A stretch of 50,319 bases of DNA from an uncultured Candidatus Saccharibacteria bacterium (GTDB lineage: Bacteria > Patescibacteriota > Minisyncoccia > Phycocordibacterales > JAACPR01), in contig CAZPRI010000001.1 in assembly GCA_964589635.1 (NCBI GenBank), positions 1 to 50,319 on the forward strand, read 5' to 3'. Position 1 is the stretch's first letter. Each line of letters starts with the position of its first letter. A program made the translations under genes and the position numbers. The notes below the pieces were generated by a model. That model saw nothing but the letters and a program-made list of their open reading frames with translations, did no database searches and was not told the origin of the DNA. Below are positions 245 through 49,829 of the stretch, piece by piece.

Positions 245-338
245 CGTCATCCTTGTGCAGGCAGGGACCCAGGCCTTTTTTAAACCATATCAGTAATATT
301 TTATAAGTCCTAGGTTCCTGTCTTCACAGGAATGACGA
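245..338. repeat. GTCATYC-hairpin composite palindromic element, copy 1 (MITE-like)
   Basis: Arm CGTCATCCTTGTGCAGGCAGGGACCCAGGCC (245-275) faces the inverted arm GTCCTAGGTTCCTGTCTTCACAGGAATGACG (307-338) across an AT-rich spacer. Homologous to 17621-17713. Confidence 0.75.
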
Positions 339-367: not shown

Positions 368-394
368 ATGTCCTGTGGGTGCAGGAATGACGAA
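368..394. repeat. Solo GTCATYC hairpin arm
   Basis: TGTCCTGTGGGTGCAGGAATGACGAA has the same TCCTG...CAGGAATGACG arm as 307-338. Confidence 0.6.
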
Positions 395-5844: not shown

Positions 5845-6105
5845 ATGAGTAATGTTGAATTTGATGATGAGCGGAATTTTAATACGAGTGCGCACTTTGT
5901 AGAAAAAAATTCTGCAATAATTCAAAAACTAATTGATCTTGGTATTGTCACTGATAAAAAATCAGCAAATATTCTTCTAGTTAGTATTGCAGTGGTTTTT
6001 CTTGTAGTTAGTTTGTTCTTATTCTTTAAAGTTTTCTCTAATGGTCCAGGAGCAAATAATGACCTTCCAGAAGATTTCCTTCCAGAAGACCTATTGTTGC
6101 CTTGA
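5845..6105 (+). CDS. Small single-pass membrane protein
   Basis: 86-aa ORF with one TM (ILLVSIAVVFLVVSLFLFFKVF) and an acidic PEDFLPEDLL tail. Ends TGA TGA TAA. Confidence 0.45.
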   Translation: MSNVEFDDERNFNTSAHFVEKNSAIIQKLIDLGIVTDKKSANILLVSIAVVFLVVSLFLFFKVFSNGPGANNDLPEDFLPEDLLLP

Positions 6106-6158
6106 TGATAAAAATATTACGACTTGCTTTTTATTGATATTTTGTTATTTTGATATTC

Positions 6159-6320
6159 ATAAGACCGAAGACAAGAGGCACACAACCACGTAAAATCAAT
6201 TTTATAAAAATTGACCACGTGGTAAATAAGTCCTCTCGAGGTTCTGCTTAAGAAGTTTTTTAAACAGACATCTTGTACCTATCGATCAGTCGGTCTTATA
6301 ACTGGTCGGTTTTTTATTAG
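6159..6320 (+). promoter_or_regulatory. Structured 5' leader upstream of rplJ (L10-leader-like)
   Basis: Nested helices: ATAAGACCGA (6159-6168) with TCGGTCTTAT (6290-6299), AGAGG with CCTCT, ACCACGT with ACGTGGT, and TCAATTTT with AAAATTGA. Lies directly 5' of rplJ. Confidence 0.4.
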
Positions 6321-6360
6321 AAAAGAATTATTTTTAATTCTTAATTTCTAGAGCCTAAAT

Positions 6361-6849
6361 ATGGCAATTACAAAAGATAAAAAGAAAGAAATACTAAAGA
6401 AATTGAATGACGTTACTACTCAAGAGTCAGTAGTGTTTGTAAATTTCCATAGTTTACCTGTTGCTGAAACTACAGAGTTGAGAAGAGAACTTCGATCAAA
6501 AGAAGTTAATTACTTTGTGGCAAAAAAGACATTGGTAAAAAAAGCATTTCAGGATTCAAAAATAAAAGGAGACCTTCCAGAGCTAGAAGGGGAACTTGCT
6601 GTTGTGTATGCAAATGACTCTACAACTGCTGCGAGAGAAATCTATTCTTTCCAAAAGAAATTTACAGATAAAATAAATATCTTAGGAGGAGTTTTTGAAG
6701 ACAAGTTCTTGAATAAATCTGAAATGGAGGAGATTGCTCTAATTCCATCAATCGATGTTCTTAGAGGAATGTTCGTGAATGTTATTAATTCACCAATTCA
6801 AGGATTTGCAATGGCAATAAAAGCAATTGCTGAAAGTAAAGAAGCGTAA
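6361..6849 (+). CDS. rplJ: 50S ribosomal protein L10
   Basis: 162 aa with an L10-like sequence, immediately upstream of rplL. Confidence 0.9.
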   Translation: MAITKDKKKEILKKLNDVTTQESVVFVNFHSLPVAETTELRRELRSKEVNYFVAKKTLVKKAFQDSKIKGDLPELEGELAVVYANDSTTAAREIYSFQKKFTDKINILGGVFEDKFLNKSEMEEIALIPSIDVLRGMFVNVINSPIQGFAMAIKAIAESKEA

Positions 6850-6870
6850 GTTATTAACTAAAATTTAATT

Positions 6871-7329
6871 ATGTCAGACGAACAAAACGTAAATACAGAA
6901 GAAGTAAAGAATGAAGTTGTTGCCGAGACTCCTGTAGTAGAAGAGACTACTGAAGAAGTTGAAGTTCCTGCTAAATTCGTAAAACTTGTTGAAGAGGTTG
7001 AGAACATGAGTGTTCTTGAACTAAACGAACTTGTAAAGGTTCTTGAAAAGAAATTTGGAGTTTCTGCTGTTGCTATGGCAGCACCAGCAGCCGGAGGAGC
7101 AGAAGCAGCAGAAGAAAAAGATGAATTCACTGTTCATTTAGCAGATGTTGGAGCATCAAAAATTGGTGTTATTAAGTCTGTTAAAGAAATCTTAGGTCTT
7201 GGTCTTAAAGAAGCCAAAGATTTAGTAGATGGAGCACCATCTGATCTTAAGACAGGAGCGAAAAAAGAAGAGGCTGAATCAATGAAAGCTAAACTAGAAG
7301 AAGCTGGAGCAAAGGTTGAACTTAAATAA
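6871..7329 (+). CDS. rplL: 50S ribosomal protein L7/L12 (with acidic N-terminal extension)
   Basis: C-terminal domain [27 protein letters not shown]...[14 protein letters not shown] is canonical L7/L12. Confidence 0.95.
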
Positions 7330-17576: not shown

Positions 17577-17713
17577 CGTCATCCCCCACAACACCACCGT
17601 CATCCTCCGCCCTACACCACCGTCATCCTCGGGTTTAACCCGGGGACCCATGTTTAAAACTATCGTAAATAATATTTTTAAGGCCTAGGTCCCTGCCTAC
17701 GCAGGGATGACGG
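17577..17713. repeat. GTCATYC-hairpin composite element, copy 2, preceded by tandem half-sites
   Basis: CGTCATCC at 17577, 17598 and 17621 (21-23 nt period). Arm CGTCATCCTCGGGTTTAACCCGGGGACCC, AT-rich spacer, then the inverted arm GGCCTAGGTCCCTGCCTACGCAGGGATGACGG. Confidence 0.8.
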
Positions 17714-27383: not shown

Positions 27384-29939
27384 GTGTGTATTCCTGTATT
27401 CTTAGTGTTGCTATTGGGAACATCTAAACTAAATAATGATTTAAATTCATCATCATTAAGTCTGGTCAATTTTAATCTTTTAGCACAAAATTATATTCAA
27501 AATGCGAATTGTCCTGTAGAGAAGGATTTGACCGAACACATCAATGATGAAATATTTGATAGAACATCTTCTGCTATTCCAGAGTCTTCACCAACAGACC
27601 TATTTATTTCAAGAGGTAATAGTGCGTCCTGGAATGAAGAAATAGGTGGAGTATGGGAAAGAAATCCAAATGTTTTAAAATCTAATAATAAACTATTGGA
27701 TTTCTCTGGGGTCTCACCATGGAATTCAGGTACTGGTTATAACAGAGCAGGAACATTGATAACTCCTAGGCATATTATTTATGCCAATCATTATAATCCA
27801 AGTAAGGGTGAACACCCTATAGAAATAGGAACAAAAATTAATTTTGTGGATATGAACAACTCCATTGTAGAAAGAACATTGGTGGATTCTAGAAAGGTTT
27901 ATGGTACTGATATTCAAGTTGGGTTATTGAATGAAGATGTTCCAGAAAATATACCGTTTTATCCAATATTGGATTCTGGAAACCTAGAAAAGTATCTTGG
28001 AAACAAATCAAAAGATTTATTTTTAATAGCATTAAATCAAGATCATGATGTTATTGTAAGGGAGATTTTACAACCCATTAATTCTGTAAGAATCTCTCAT
28101 AAAATCCCTGTTTCAGATCAACTTAATTTGTTCAGTAAAAACTTAAGGGTAGGAGATTCTGGTAATCCAATGTTTTTTAGTATTAATGGTGATTTAGTGC
28201 TCATTGCTGGGCATGCTAGTAAGGTTGCTGGTCCATCATATTCATTTTATAAAAAAGAGATTCAAGATACTATCAATCAGATGAGTTCAGGGTACACATT
28301 GAAGAATTTTGACCTTTCATGCTTCAGGCCTCATATTGTTTTGTCTGATGAGGCTCCTCTTGTTGTTCCTGAAAAATTTGATGTTGGTGATAATGTTGGT
28401 TCAATAAAAATTAAAAGTGGTTTACAAAGTGGCGGATACGTATTTTCTATATCAAAAGGTAATGAGGACGGACTGTTGTCTATAAATAGTTCAACAGGGA
28501 AAATTGTTGTAGCAAGCAAGATATCTAATCAGTTAAAAAGCTCATCAAGAGAAATAGAAATAAGTGTTAAGTCTGATGTTTTTCCTGACACAGCAGTGTA
28601 TCAATCATACAAAATATATTTTGAGGATTATTTACCAAAATTTTCCGCTCTTATTGAAGATAAAAAGGATGATTCGATTAATTTTGCATGGAGAACAACT
28701 TCTGCAAAACCAAGAACAGTTAGTATCCCTGTAGAGACTAGATATAAACATCATATTTTTAAAAACAGTGTATTTTTGGGGACTGTAGAAAAAAACACTT
28801 TCACAGATCTTGATTTTAAAACTGAAGAACCGTCTAGGTACTTAATATATGTTGAAAGTGATAATGATCTTATTGGTTTTTCTGAAATAATCATTAATCC
28901 TTCAGAAATTAATACTCCTAACAACGCACCTATCCTATCTTCAATAGGAGATCAAGATGTCGTAGAAGAATCAACATTATCTTTAGAAATAGAGGCAACT
29001 GATGCAGATAGAGACACTCTCTCATATTCAGTTGATTCTTTGCCAGAGAATGCCTCATTTAATCCAAATTCAAGAAAATTTATTTTTGAACCAGATCAGA
29101 CTCAAGAAGGACAATACGATATTACCTTTATAGTTTCAGATGGGGAATTGAAAGATGAAGAAGCAATTGTAATCACTGTTACAAATCTAGGAGACTCAAA
29201 GTCTATTGATGACTCAGATAATGATGGAATTTTAGACACACAAGATAAATGTCCAAATACTCCAGCAAATATAAAAACTCACGTGAACAAATTTGGTTGT
29301 CCAAAACCAGTTCATACAAACTTTGATACGGGAACAGATTTGGATGATGTTGACCCGACAGCTTCAATTACAGGCCTTGAATTAGGAGTATCAAACAAAG
29401 GAAAAATTAAATTCCTAGAAGACGTTACGCTTAACACTAGCTCATATATAACAAAAAGAGTTAATCTTGATAATTTGATTAAGATTGAAAAAAATAAGGT
29501 TACAATTGATTCAGATAGTGCGCCACAATTAAATAGAAGAGCAACTATTGAGTTGGAGGGTGTCGAATTTGATACTCCGGTTATAAAGAAGGATGGAAAT
29601 GTGATATTGTGTCCATTTAGAGTCGACGCTTCAGGAGATGAGGATTGTATAATTGAATCATACGATAAATCAACAGGTCTTCTAGTTTTTACAGTTTCAG
29701 GTTTCTCAACATATGAAATTCAAGAAGGGTCAGGTGAAAATGAAACAACTGTTTCAGAAGTTAAACCTACATCAAGTGTAAACACTGATAAAAGAACTAG
29801 TTCTGGAGGAAGGGGAGGTTCCTCATCAAAAGATAGTGGAGAAAAAGAAGTAACACTGATCAATTTTCTAAAAATTCTTTTATTTTTTGGGCTGATCTCT
29901 CAAGATCAAGTAAACTTTATTACAAGCTTATTTATTTAG
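27384..29939 (+). CDS. Large surface protein: trypsin-like serine peptidase-like N-domain, cadherin-like repeat, thrombospondin type-3-like Ca-binding repeat
   Basis: GTG start (the true start may lie upstream). H in TPRHIIYANH, D in GTDIQVGLL, S in GDSGNPMF (Ser codon 28158-28160). Also ATDADRDTLSYSV cadherin-like, DDSDNDGILDTQDKCPNTP TSP3-like, and a hydrophobic C-terminus. Confidence 0.7.
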   Translation: MCIPVFLVLLLGTSKLNNDLNSSSLSLVNFNLLAQNYIQNANCPVEKDLTEHINDEIFDRTSSAIPESSPTDLFISRGNSASWNEEIGGVWERNPNVLKSNNKLLDFSGVSPWNSGTGYNRAGTLITPRHIIYANHYNPSKGEHPIEIGTKINFVDMNNSIVERTLVDSRKVYGTDIQVGLLNEDVPENIPFYPILDSGNLEKYLGNKSKDLFLIALNQDHDVIVREILQPINSVRISHKIPVSDQLNLFSKNLRVGDSGNPMFFSINGDLVLIAGHASKVAGPSYSFYKKEIQDTINQMSSGYTLKNFDLSCFRPHIVLSDEAPLVVPEKFDVGDNVGSIKIKSGLQSGGYVFSISKGNEDGLLSINSSTGKIVVASKISNQLKSSSREIEISVKSDVFPDTAVYQSYKIYFEDYLPKFSALIEDKKDDSINFAWRTTSAKPRTVSIPVETRYKHHIFKNSVFLGTVEKNTFTDLDFKTEEPSRYLIYVESDNDLIGFSEIIINPSEINTPNNAPILSSIGDQDVVEESTLSLEIEATDADRDTLSYSVDSLPENASFNPNSRKFIFEPDQTQEGQYDITFIVSDGELKDEEAIVITVTNLGDSKSIDDSDNDGILDTQDKCPNTPANIKTHVNKFGCPKPVHTNFDTGTDLDDVDPTASITGLELGVSNKGKIKFLEDVTLNTSSYITKRVNLDNLIKIEKNKVTIDSDSAPQLNRRATIELEGVEFDTPVIKKDGNVILCPFRVDASGDEDCIIESYDKSTGLLVFTVSGFSTYEIQEGSGENETTVSEVKPTSSVNTDKRTSSGGRGGSSSKDSGEKEVTLINFLKILLFFGLISQDQVNFITSLFI

Positions 29940-32336: not shown

Positions 32337-32450
32337 GGAAACCCAGTCCTTAAAAGATATTTCTTACAGAAAACGTGGGTCCCCGGGTTAAACCCGAGGA
32401 TGACGTTTACTGTGTTGTAGGATAACGGTGGTTTTTGTAGGATGACAGTA
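32337..32450. repeat. GTCATYC-hairpin element, copy 3 (reverse orientation, distal arm truncated, tandem half-sites)
   Basis: The reverse complement of 32375-32405 is CGTCATCCTCGGGTTTAACCCGGGGACCCAC, near-identical to 17621-17650. GGATAACGG (32420) and GGATGACAG (32440) are half-sites; the spacer is homologous to copy 2. Confidence 0.75.
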
Positions 32451-47071: not shown

Positions 47072-47320
47072 TTATTTTAAATATTTTTCTATCAAAATCT
47101 CTTTCTTTTTTCTAGACCACTTTTTGATTTGAATCTCTCTTTTTCTGGTAGATGAAAGGGAAGAGTGTTTTTCTAGATAAACTAACTTGAATTGCTTTCT
47201 TTTGGTATAAGACACACCTCGGTTTTGATTGTGTTCAAGAAGCCTACGGTTTGGGTTTGATGTCACACCAACATAAATTCATTTGTTATCGAAGCTTTTT
47301 AAAATATATAGGTAGTGCAT
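47072..47320 (-). pseudogene. GIY-YIG nuclease-family gene with in-frame TGA at codon 14
   Basis: ATG 47320 reads MHYLYILKSFDNK, then TGA (47279-47281), then IYVGVTSNPNRRLLEHNQNRG...REIQIKKWSRKKKEILIEKY. GIY...YVG and the RR-L-EHN and KKWSR-KK motifs match small GIY-YIG proteins. Confidence 0.7.
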
Positions 47321-47720: not shown

Positions 47721-47736
47721 TTTTTAGTTTTTCTAT

Positions 47737-47753
47737 GTGGAGATGGGGGGAAT
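47737..47753. repeat. Direct repeat, proximal copy (T-loop to 3' acceptor of tmRNA)
   Basis: GTGGAGATGGGGGGAAT. Confidence 0.9.
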
Positions 47754-48108
47754 TGAACCCCCGTGCACATAATGCTTCAGAATGAATCTACAAGATATAG
47801 TTGCTTTTTGGTTTTTTTAAACAGTGAATCTATAAAAGAAACAAAACAATTCAAAGTCGATCCCTAATTTAAATTTATAGCTGGGCGACTACAAACCTAG
47901 CTTCGCGTTTTTAACACCCGCTCAATCTACGAAGCCTCGAAAGATTGGGTGTCACTTAGGCTGTAGCGTAAGCGAATGCGAAATCGTTTGCCTTAAAGTA
48001 AGGACTTACAATATTTTTTGCATTTGAATTTTTAAGCAGTTTCAGTGGTTACTTAAGCCACACCTTGCACATAAAGAAGTGAATTATATGTCGATGCCAA
48101 GCATCCCC
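47738..48108 (-). ncRNA. ssrA: tmRNA (transfer-messenger RNA)
   Basis: The minus strand starts GGGGAUGCUUGGCAUCGAC and ends GGGGGUUCAAUUCCCCCCAUCUCCA. The acceptor stem has a G3-U wobble. Tag ORF GCA AAC GAU UUC GCA UUC GCU UAC GCU ACA GCC UAA encodes ANDFAFAYATA (47956-47991). Length is about 371 nt and smpB is nearby. Confidence 0.88.
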
Positions 48109-48357: not shown

Positions 48358-49788
48358 ATGTTGGTAATGAAATTAAAAAATGAAGCCCTCGATAAACTTC
48401 GGGGCAAAAAAGTTTTAATGGTTGGACTTGGAATTTTGGGCGGTGGCGTAGCCACCGCAAGATTTCTTGTAAAAAGAGGAGCTAAGCTTACTATTACTGA
48501 TTTAAAGGATGAAGATTACCTAAAAAAATCACTTAAGAAACTTAAGGGATTAAAAATTACATATGTTCTTGGTAAGCATAATGAATCAGATTTTAAGGAG
48601 TCGGAATTAATTGTTTTGAACCCTGATGTCCCTGTTGATAGTCCTTTTGTAAAAATAGCAAAGAAATATAAAGTTCCGATAACAAATGAATTAAATTTGT
48701 TCATGGAATATTGTAAGAGTAAAAATATTGTCGCGATAACTGGAACAAGAGGAAAGACAACAACTGTTGCGTGGACACATTTTCTAATGAATGAACTTGT
48801 TGGTAAAACTCACTTAGCAGGGAATTCTCCAACAAATCCTTTTTTAAAAATGGTAGATAAAATAAAAGAAAATGATTTTGTTGTTTGCGAATGCCCTTCG
48901 TATCAATTAGAGATTGTGGATAAAAGTTTTAAACCAAAAGTTTCCGTTATTACAAATATTTATAGGGATCATATAAACAGACACAAGACAGAAGAGAATT
49001 ATGCAAAAATAAAATCAAATATTTTTAAGTACCAATCAAAAGATGATTTTTTGATTTTGAATAATAAAGATAAATGGACGAAGGAGTTCTTAAATAAAAA
49101 AATAAAACCAGAAGTGCTTTTAGTCCCAAATAAAAAAATACTTCCTAAACTTCCTGCTGATTTTGGTGAACATAATGAGCAGAATCTAAATATTGCTTTA
49201 TTGATAATTAATCTATTCAAAAAAGAAATTTGGGTCACAGGGCTCAAGTCGAAGATGATGATTTCTGATGAGTTGATTAGAAATCTCCCACAACCAACTT
49301 TTAGACAAGAGAAGGTTTTTGAGAGTAAAGATCTAACTGTTATAAATGATTCAGCTGCGACATCACCTGAGGCAACAATTGCTGCTTTAAATAGATTTCG
49401 AGGTTTAGGAACTTTTCTTATAACAGGAGGAACTGATAGAGGTCTTCATTATAAAGAGCTAGCAAAATTTTTAAACAAAAACATTAAAAATGAAAATCTA
49501 GCTCTACTTGCTGGTTCTGCAACAGAGAAATTAAAAGAGGATTTATCCCACACCGTCATTCCTGTGAAGACAGGAATCCAGGCCTCCAAAAATATTTTCA
49601 ACGAGTTTGATTCTTTAAAAGAGTGTATTGAATTTGTTAAAAAACAAATAGCGGAAAGCGAAAAGAAAGAAGAGAGAAGTTTTATTGTTTTTTCACCTGG
49701 AGCAAAGTCTTTCGAAAAATTCAAAAATGAATTTGATAGGGGAGAAAAGTTTAATACCTTATTCAAGAAAATATTTAAAAAATTATAG
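48358..49788 (+). CDS. murD: UDP-N-acetylmuramoylalanine--D-glutamate ligase-like Mur ligase
   Basis: N-terminal Rossmann-like VLMVGLGILGGGVATARFLVKRGAKLTITD and ITGTRGKTTT P-loop; 476 aa. Confidence 0.82.
   Translation: MLVMKLKNEALDKLRGKKVLMVGLGILGGGVATARFLVKRGAKLTITDLKDEDYLKKSLKKLKGLKITYVLGKHNESDFKESELIVLNPDVPVDSPFVKIAKKYKVPITNELNLFMEYCKSKNIVAITGTRGKTTTVAWTHFLMNELVGKTHLAGNSPTNPFLKMVDKIKENDFVVCECPSYQLEIVDKSFKPKVSVITNIYRDHINRHKTEENYAKIKSNIFKYQSKDDFLILNNKDKWTKEFLNKKIKPEVLLVPNKKILPKLPADFGEHNEQNLNIALLIINLFKKEIWVTGLKSKMMISDELIRNLPQPTFRQEKVFESKDLTVINDSAATSPEATIAALNRFRGLGTFLITGGTDRGLHYKELAKFLNKNIKNENLALLAGSATEKLKEDLSHTVIPVKTGIQASKNIFNEFDSLKECIEFVKKQIAESEKKEERSFIVFSPGAKSFEKFKNEFDRGEKFNTLFKKIFKKL
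49551..49587. repeat. GTCATYC-hairpin arm embedded in frame inside murD
   Basis: CACCGTCATTCCTGTGAAGACAGGAATCCAGGCCTCC. A 23-nt run is identical to the reverse complement of 315-337. It is translated as HTVIPVKTGIQAS. Confidence 0.85.
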
Positions 49789-49795
49789 TTAAAAC

Positions 49796-49829
49796 ATACG
49801 TCTTCCCAGCCTTCGCTGGGAAGACGTAT
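49796..49829. terminator. Hairpin between convergent murD and smpB
   Basis: ATACGTCTTCCCAGC-CTTC-GCTGGGAAGACGTAT, a 15-bp stem with weak T-runs. Confidence 0.6.

Follow-up and report, generated by a model that had tools for sequence, protein, structure and literature searches.

A probable copy of an Ssn-related hairpin repeat, read in frame in a surface loop of MurD in a small Patescibacteria genome

Here, we examine a DNA stretch of 50,319 nucleotides from an uncultured Candidatus Saccharibacteria bacterium, called the window below, in which the last complete gene, murD, hosts an insertion of a palindromic repeat arm that is translated in frame. The gene (48358..49788, plus strand) is an open reading frame (ORF) for UDP-N-acetylmuramoylalanine--D-glutamate ligase, a protein of 476 aa with the Pfam domains Mur_ligase_M and MurD-like_N, and the assembly consists of 589,627 bases in 32 contigs, with 34% GC. 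We will argue that the stretch in murD is quite probably a solitary copy of a dispersed hairpin related to dRS3, to the Neisseria Transformation Sequence (NTS) and to the Ssn-related motifs (SRM), that it is read through in a permissive MurD loop, and that the DNA hairpin is what is kept.

Positions 49551-49587 of the window read CACCGTCATTCCTGTGAAGACAGGAATCCAGGCCTCC. The 23 nt CGTCATTCCTGTGAAGACAGGAA within it occur exactly twice in the window, at 49554-49576 on the plus strand and, as the reverse complement, at 315-337 on the minus strand, and none of 100 dinucleotide-preserving shuffles gave two matches. A preliminary description of this DNA had pointed to this identity, to a CCAGGCC tail that the murD arm has in common with an intergenic arm at 245-275, and to the addition of a short in-frame peptide in the C-terminal domain of MurD. 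All three observations hold, and the net addition amounts to 13 aa. The insertion extends slightly beyond the arm, since it takes in a C-rich 5' flank. As delimited by the protein alignment and by comparison of filled and empty sites in the DNA, it spans 49546..49587 (plus strand) and consists of the flank TCCCACAC (49546-49553), the 31-nt arm and TCC. These 14 codons (SHTVIPVKTGIQAS) are translated as S397-H-T-V-I-P-V-K-T-G-I-Q-A-S410, with boundaries inferred to within 1-2 codons.

The arm core, CGTCATTCCTGTGAAGACAGGAATCCAGGCC (49554..49584, plus strand), is an NTS/dRS3-like hairpin, identified by the 23-nt match to 315-337 and by nhmmer (E = 4e-9). An 8-bp stem pairs 49558-49565 with 49570-49577 around the loop GAAG, with GTC upstream and a C directly after the palindrome, and the DNA fold has an energy of -6.4 kcal/mol (z = -2.5). 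Directly 3' of the arm, AAAAATATT may be either a spacer of the element or the native residues K-N-I. At the Rfam gathering thresholds, a tmRNA is the sole match in the whole window, and the arm is therefore not a curated RNA family.

Two checks that had been proposed, mapping on a predicted structure and alignment with orthologues, both bear out the insertion. In the AlphaFold (AF2) model, which superposes on solved MurD structures at TM ~0.7 and in which the MurD fold is otherwise intact, the insert coincides with residues 399-411, a coil of low confidence (pLDDT < 50) that connects helix 387-395 with strand 416 in the C-terminal domain (domain 3). In the protein alignment, S397-S410 has no counterpart in 20 of the 23 best MurD orthologues, and at the DNA level the empty sites of two of these loci, L004 and L005, read straight through. 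The orthologues have 63-67% identity and lie on metagenome contigs with the same murD-smpB-ftsH context, and the nearest named relatives carry the labels Patescibacteria or Zambryskibacteria. The 90% protein cluster of this MurD holds identical full-length copies and one fragment, and nothing else. In a set of 61 related genomes, no MurD match at E <= 1e-40 was found in the genome of the same genus or in 31 of the 32 genomes of the same family. The comparison thus rests on metagenome orthologues, because most related genomes gave no match; the gene may be patchy in this family, or the set of reference genomes may be sparse.

The murD arm belongs to a repeat family that is dispersed over the genome. 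By mismatch scan, pattern scan and nhmmer profile, the 31-nt type-1 arm, with the consensus CGTCATCCCTGCGnAGGCAGGGACCCAGGCC, is present in about 30 copies, and a sister arm, called type-2 (CGTCATCCTCGGGTTTAACCCGGGGACCCA), in 28 copies at E <= 0.01 (nhmmer). Some arms stand alone, and others form inverted doublets with a 31-nt AT-rich spacer in between. The partner of the 23-nt match is part of such a doublet, a composite element in the rpsG-fusA gap (245..337) with one arm at 245-275 (plus), the 31-nt AT-rich spacer and an inverted arm at 307-337 (minus). This REPIN/NIME-like element folds as a whole at -17 kcal/mol (z = -3.8), is adjoined by a partial arm, CGTCATTCCTGCACCCACAGGA (371..392, minus strand), and shares its 62-nt spacing with doublets on contigs C3 and C5. 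A C-rich 5' flank like that of the murD insert also precedes many of the intergenic arms.

The stem shows covariation. In an alignment of 28 arms, 99.5% of the stem cells pair and four of the seven pairs have changed on both sides, and there are 24 compensatory cells compared to 7.7 +/- 2.1 in shuffles (0 of 500), while slid registers all pair far worse than the real stem. Outside the stem, the asymmetric flanks CGTC... and ...CCAGGCC are conserved, and G2, T3, C4, A5 and C25 are invariant in 28/28 arms, the murD copy included. It is important to note that 88% of the genome lies under ORFs of at least 100 aa, and only about 5 of the 30 type-1 arms and 1 of the 28 type-2 arms lie in verified genes. 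Because so few arms lie in genes despite this coverage, most coding insertions have presumably been removed by selection, and the surviving coding copies would presumably be only those in frame and in loops.

Two genes other than murD hold in-frame arms, which answers a search that the preliminary description had suggested. In tsaD (C6:25772-27037), the peptides SVIPAQAGIQN and LGNCLRGDDA stand at the two ends of a segment of ~47 aa, an arm doublet, that corresponds to only 4 residues in the solved E. coli TsaD. A third arm in this gene, of type-2, is read as WVPGSCPRMT within a second insertion of ~22 aa relative to the same structure. The prepilin peptidase gene (C9:15733-16620) contains two arms read from the opposite strand, as KVWVPASAGMT and SMDPSLRWE.

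We now turn our attention to the identity of the arm. dRS3 is a 20-bp repeat, ATTCCC-N8-GGGAAT, that forms the inverted repeats of the Neisseria NIME arrays (PMC1797815). The NTS, described in 2025, has 28 nt, CGTCATTCCCGCGMAVGCGGGAATCYRG, and the wider class of Ssn-related motifs is found in many bacteria (PMC11893778). SsnA, a GIY-YIG protein of 94 aa, binds and cuts NTS hairpins in single-stranded DNA only; cutting needs 3 nt upstream of the palindrome, binding needs the C immediately following it, and the loop does not matter (PMC11893778). More generally, small GIY-YIG nucleases of the Ssn family from Neisseria and Wolbachia bind and cut oriented hairpins of the form CGTC-A-stem-loop-stem-T-C-CAG, again only when single-stranded (PMC11893778). 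The bases critical for SsnA (G2 T3 C4, C25) are exactly invariant columns of the arms of the present genome, in 28/28. The murD arm is an inverted-repeat hairpin within the 20-50 nt of these motifs, with non-palindromic flanks that orient it, and the 3 nt upstream together with the C after the palindrome are present in 28/28 arms. Furthermore, as will be discussed below, the motif lies on both sides of an ssn-type gene with a single GIY-YIG domain. The canonical NTS translated in frame 2 is exactly VIPAKAGIQ, so the peptide type to which the murD insert had been likened in the preliminary description is that of this hairpin.

The arms do not have the dRS3 sequence itself: the murD copy is ATTCCT-N8-AGGAAT and most arms here are ATCCCT-N8-AGGGAC. 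Because their AT-shifted stems fail both published motifs, we class them as a variant that would function like an SRM and not as canonical NTS. The framework is that of the dRS3/NTS Ssn-related motif, with the stem shifted towards A and T. A degenerate arm pattern finds at least 120 loci in a genome collection, compared to ~0.02 expected by chance (a rough estimate with equal base frequencies). Among the matches listed are Alpha-, Beta-, Gamma- and Deltaproteobacteria, Planctomycetota, Dehalococcoidia, Nitrospirota, Gemmatimonadota and others, including Neisseria lactamica and N. dentiae; most of those listed read CGTCATTCCCGCG[AC]AGGCGGGAATCCAG, and many are inverted doublets around unrelated spacers. 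At one locus, L022 of Rhodopseudomonas pentothenatexigens (5845-7311), six same-strand arms at ~310-nt spacing form a tandem array reminiscent of the Neisseria NIME arrays; the same spacer, and then an inverted arm of a second type, comes after each of the six. Full-text literature searches gave no paper on VIPAKAGIQ or on palindromic elements in the candidate phyla radiation, and none on translated in-frame copies of Ssn-related motifs or on an Ssn/arm system in Patescibacteria.

The relation to dRS3 brings in one further scenario, in which the arms are not mobile themselves and are passively used as landing sites by an IS110-type recombinase, in the way that dRS3 is used by filamentous phages of Neisseria. 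According to the literature, these Nf phages do integrate into dRS3 by means of a phage transposase. However, DEDD_Tnp_IS110 has no match in the present genome and only one of the 61 relatives has one; the 2.8 kb that could be read around that gene (G059, at a contig end) hold no arm. A landing-site role also leaves the spread of arms into coding loops unexplained, and we regard this scenario as extremely improbable.

The same MurD site carries an arm, in the same orientation and frame, in three proteins: that of the window and those of two metagenome loci, L001 (protein P0003) and L003 (P0002). The net gains are 13, 15 and 9 codons, respectively, and the L001 insert likewise has a C-rich 5' flank, ACCCAACA. 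Such a pattern could arise from one ancient insertion in the ancestor of the MurD clade, passed on vertically and kept as a loop useful to MurD, with the empty sites as later deletions. The common site, orientation and reading frame agree with this, all three carriers have a similar core peptide, V-I-[PL]-x-K-x-G-I-Q, and the tree permits one gain followed by two losses. We nevertheless consider it very unlikely. In a MurD tree from which the columns of the insert were left out, the three carriers do not form one clade, and P0002 is sister to the empty P0004/P0005 with support of 100/100; counting well-supported branches only, at least two changes have to be assumed, and on the best tree three. 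The stems of the three copies (TTCCTGT/ACAGGAA, TCCCCGC/GCGGGGA and TCCTTGC/GCAGGGA) differ by compensatory pairs, that is, by changes that preserve pairing in the DNA yet alter the peptide (P/L, V/A, T/A). Measured in mismatches, the murD arm is also nearer to paralogous copies elsewhere in the genome (3) than to the same-site arms of the orthologues (6-8). Moreover, the insert loop is modelled as disordered, and other lineages hold unrelated GC-rich repeats at this very site, as in P0007. Because the carriers are not monophyletic, the stems differ by compensatory pairs and the own-genome copies are closer, the sequences speak for more than one insertion, or for conversion by copies elsewhere in the genome, rather than for plain vertical descent. 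In any case, the insertion loop of MurD is a hot spot.

A similar picture emerges from other loops of the protein. Arms follow an RF[SK] motif in another loop in the MurDs of P0003 and P0007, and a loop of P0005 holds a clear type-1 arm, CGTCACCCCTGCGTAGGCAGGGGTCCAGTCC, read in another frame as RHPCVGRGP. In the latter loop the MurD of the window is 9 aa longer than the orthologues, with pLDDT < 50 at residues 291-297. The corresponding DNA, 49231..49260 (minus strand), matches the type-2 consensus at 22/30 positions, is read as WVTGLKSKMM, and may be a decayed type-2 arm, although the support is weak. It is the only site in the genome with a score of 22/30 (the background is 30, 9, 4 and 0 for scores 18-21), while nhmmer at E <= 10 did not recover it. 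Repeat-like loop peptides are also seen in the MurDs of P0003, P0004, P0005, P0007, P0009 and P0042 (TSLKLPARTLQAGRRG, LRQGYEGQANPSSTKLGTSKP, SPHYAKATRG, KGTPRLRSGKEGRRD and SSTSLGTSN). Several unrelated families of GC-rich repeats seem to use the same permissive MurD loops.

The genome also encodes a candidate partner of the arms. Seven small GIY-YIG reading frames are present, three of them of the Ssn type (on contigs C24, C28 and C23). The intact one, of 95 aa (C24:8560-8847), has 54% identity over its full length to a homologue from Neisseria dentiae (E = 3e-30) and 44-53% to multiple copies in Sphingopyxis and Rhodopseudomonas, and its Y8, Y19 and E66 have the same spacing as Y6, Y17 and E64, the residues mutated in the work on SsnA (PMC11893778). 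A PDB sequence search with this type of protein gave no match, and an NCBIfam search gave sub-threshold GIY-YIG matches only. The C24 gene is bracketed by perfect direct repeats of 51 nt, each consisting of ACCGTCATCACGCAACCCAC followed by an arm, and the right-hand one continues into a full composite element. The pseudogene copy on C28 has an arm upstream, the C23 copy is flanked by its own hairpin variant, and CGTCA[TC]-hairpins also border the Ssn homologues of other phyla. In the relative G003, the ssn gene (29273-29542) sits between arms at 29190 (plus) and 29547 (minus).

The distribution of the arms points in the same direction. In a survey of the 61 relatives, for which a reversed-pattern control gave 0 matches in all 61, arms were found in 11 genomes, with counts from 0 to 65 and large differences even within one genus. 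At least 10 arms are present in 5 of the 6 genomes with an Ssn-type gene and in 2 of the 55 without one (Fisher p = 2e-5).

Taken a step further, the ssn gene with its flanking arms might form an autonomous element, similar to an insertion sequence (IS), that acts on single-stranded DNA. Single arms and doublets would then be its non-autonomous derivatives, and Ssn cutting together with host repair would insert arms into permissive loops of essential genes and cleanly remove them. We judge this unlikely as things stand. If it were true, the palindromes inserted in frame in reduced genomes would owe their origin to Ssn-type nucleases, an activity that has long been missing from the picture. The region C24:8440-9020 has an IS-like layout: two CCGTCAT half-sites and an arm, the Ssn-type gene, the exact 51-nt repeat, an AT-rich spacer and, in inverted orientation, a type-2 arm and half-sites. 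Minus the gene, this unit resembles the intergenic composite elements.

Another candidate for moving the arms is a RAYT, an IS200-like Y1 transposase, which would copy them as repetitive extragenic palindromic (REP) sequences or REPINs, as has been proposed for the dRS3 doublets of Neisseria; the Ssn gene would then be a passenger or a secondary user. Classical REPs carry a GTAG-type 5' tetranucleotide, which the present arms lack. Many of the arms are REPIN-like in forming inverted doublets at a fixed 62-nt spacing, the genome has two Y1_Tnp genes (C9:17336-17890 and C3:44859-45467), and Bertels and Rainey describe the Neisseria ATTCCCGCGCAGGCGGGAATC doublets as REPINs tied to a Group 2 RAYT. 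However, neither Y1_Tnp gene is flanked by arms, their neighbors being other hairpins of the GGTCGCACC type. Y1_Tnp genes occur in 27 of the 61 relatives without tracking the arm counts: the arm-rich G003 and G037 lack them, and 2-5 are present in many genomes free of arms. We therefore find this explanation quite unlikely. The RAYT-like genes each adjoin a hairpin of their own, AAGGTCGCACCT...AGGTGCGACCTT on C9 and GGCAACGTCCGACGTTGTC on C3, and may represent separate repeat systems.

We thus return to the reading that the murD stretch is a solitary copy of the dispersed dRS3/NTS-related hairpin, read through in a permissive loop. Directly supported are the insertion, its location in a loop, the membership of the arm in the family, the covariation, the link to the ssn gene and the repeated occupation of the same MurD loops in other lineages. 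One arm with ~8 nt of C-rich 5' flank sits in a permissive loop at the surface of domain 3 of MurD, in the stop-free orientation and in frame. It is translated as a loop of 13-14 residues, disordered according to the structural model, and the peptide would be a by-product; the DNA hairpin and the few bases read by the nuclease would be what is propagated or preserved. The local Ssn protein would cut the arms, and the Ssn-arm unit, or some other activity, would copy them to new sites.

A number of observations weigh against this reading. To our knowledge, Ssn is known only as a nuclease and is not known to insert or join DNA, so that the arm-placing step has no demonstrated enzyme. No target-site duplication is readable at the murD insert, where the closest pair of filled and empty sites is too diverged in the loop. 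Miniature inverted-repeat transposable elements combine terminal inverted repeats with a target-site duplication; the composite elements here have inverted arms, and no duplication could be read for want of a sufficiently close pair of filled and empty sites. In the survey of relatives, G001 and G037 are arm-rich and no Ssn-type gene was found in them, and G011 has the gene but only one arm under the pattern used. No ComEC domain (PF03772) was found in the present genome, which weakens a Neisseria-like role in transformation; the single-stranded DNA met by Ssn would thus more likely come from replication, repair or invading DNA. Finally, the published motifs miss the arm. It has 4 mismatches to the NTS, two compensatory stem pairs, compared to at most one allowed; other arms of the genome have 3-8, and exact NTS-type arms are present in the relatives G059, G001 and G031. 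The SRM search sequence, HGTCWYN(0-2)YYVSBRHN(0-5)WNVSBRGN(0-2)RNCYNB, matches 1 of 24 arms here and not the one in murD, because the stems have T/A at positions where it requires C/G. It should be pointed out that this degenerate sequence is a search tool derived from 29 genomes and not a functional definition (PMC11893778).

Several further repeats in the window and the genome deserve mention. A second composite element, at 17577..17713, has three CCGTCATCC half-sites at a 21-23-nt period, the third of which opens a type-2 arm (17621-17650) that is followed by an AT-rich spacer and an inverted type-1 arm (17682-17712); extra half-sites with the same period are found on C24. A solitary type-2 arm lies at 32376..32405 (minus strand; nhmmer E = 1e-10). 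In some type-2 arms a second hairpin of 20 nt, CCCTGCCTACCGGCAGGCAGG, is nested in the loop, a modular arrangement of two hairpin families (C2:2919-2968, C9:9281-9330, C27:1648-1697, C6:6344-6393, C28:5232-5279 and C11:19687-19734). Only 10 nt past the murD stop is a perfect 30-nt palindrome, ACGTCTTCCCAGCCTTCGCTGGGAAGACGT (49798..49827), with a DNA fold of -13.1 kcal/mol (z = -7.35). It is the same on both strands because it is built as CGTC-stem-loop-stem-GACG, with the frame found in the arms, and may be either a hairpin resembling a terminator or a symmetric form related to the arm. The hairpins beside the C23 ssn copy open with a similar sequence, CGTCTTCCCGGA. The window also contains, at 47084-47320 (minus strand), a small GIY-YIG frame of another subfamily (37% identity to the Ssn type) that is broken by one TGA. 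It is located between the tmRNA gene (47735-48108) and the upstream genes, and has intact relatives on C8, beside a tRNA gene, and on C3.

Since 2000, Rickettsia has offered examples of palindromes inserted in frame in essential genes, and we know of no enzyme tied to them. What is added here is the identity of the repeat and the link to a nuclease gene in the same genome. The murD locus connects such insertions with the Ssn/NTS system, in that the translated repeat keeps the exact bases read by Ssn and the genome encodes a nuclease of this type flanked by the repeat. A descriptive oddity thereby becomes a question that can be addressed at the bench, namely whether the GIY-YIG protein cuts the arms and drives their gain and loss. 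Since the published search motifs miss AT-shifted variants, the family of Ssn motifs is probably wider than reported. For annotation, peptides such as VIPxKxGIQ, RHxCxxRxP, WVPxxAGMT and LDxxLRxDD in Patescibacteria should be taken as repeat-derived loops and not as conserved protein motifs.

Of the known systems, NTS/SRM-Ssn, including dRS3 and the NIME arrays, has the same oriented framework as the present one, CGTC-A-stem-loop-stem-T-C-CAG, with the bases critical for SsnA invariant here too (PMC11893778, PMC1797815). Both have singlets and inverted doublets around variable spacers, and both have a single-domain GIY-YIG gene of ~95 aa with the motif on its flanks, with a patchy copy number that tracks the gene. 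The differences are that the stems here are AT-shifted (TTCCTGT/ACAGGAA, TCCCTGC/GCAGGGA) and missed by both published motifs, that the host is a 0.59-Mb genome of the Patescibacteria, a group absent from the main text of PMC11893778, and that in-frame translated copies in essential genes are not discussed there. The role in Neisseria transformation may not apply here either, as no ComEC domain was found.

The REPIN-RAYT systems and BIMEs (bioRxiv 10.1101/2021.07.10.451892) are similar in their inverted hairpin doublets of fixed spacing, in copy numbers of tens per genome that vary between relatives, and in a repeat that flanks one small associated gene. That gene, however, is here a GIY-YIG nuclease and not a Y1 transposase, and no RAYT was found that is flanked by the arms or distributed with them, the Y1_Tnp genes lying beside other hairpins.

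The preliminary description had likened the murD insertion to the Rickettsia palindromic elements (RPEs), and this analogy stands for the behavior but not for membership, the arm being a variant of the dRS3/NTS hairpin. As with RPEs, a reduced genome holds palindromic repeats both in intergenic stretches and within unrelated housekeeping genes, where they keep the frame and add peptides at places that the protein fold tolerates; because tsaD and the prepilin peptidase gene also hold in-frame arms, the likeness extends beyond murD. RPEs (Ogata et al. 2000, as summarized in PMC10969869) are ~100-150 bp long and form ten Rickettsia families (RPE-1 to RPE-10) with conserved peptides, while the unit here is a single arm of 27-51 nt in murD, with an insert of ~42 nt, or a doublet of ~140 nt in tsaD, in a Patescibacteria host. 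It is by length and host that the two are set apart here. Rickettsia has been noted as rich in SRM-like motifs (PMC11893778), and for this reason the reading of ssn gene and arms as one IS-like element, if correct, could possibly be extended to the Rickettsia palindromic elements as well.

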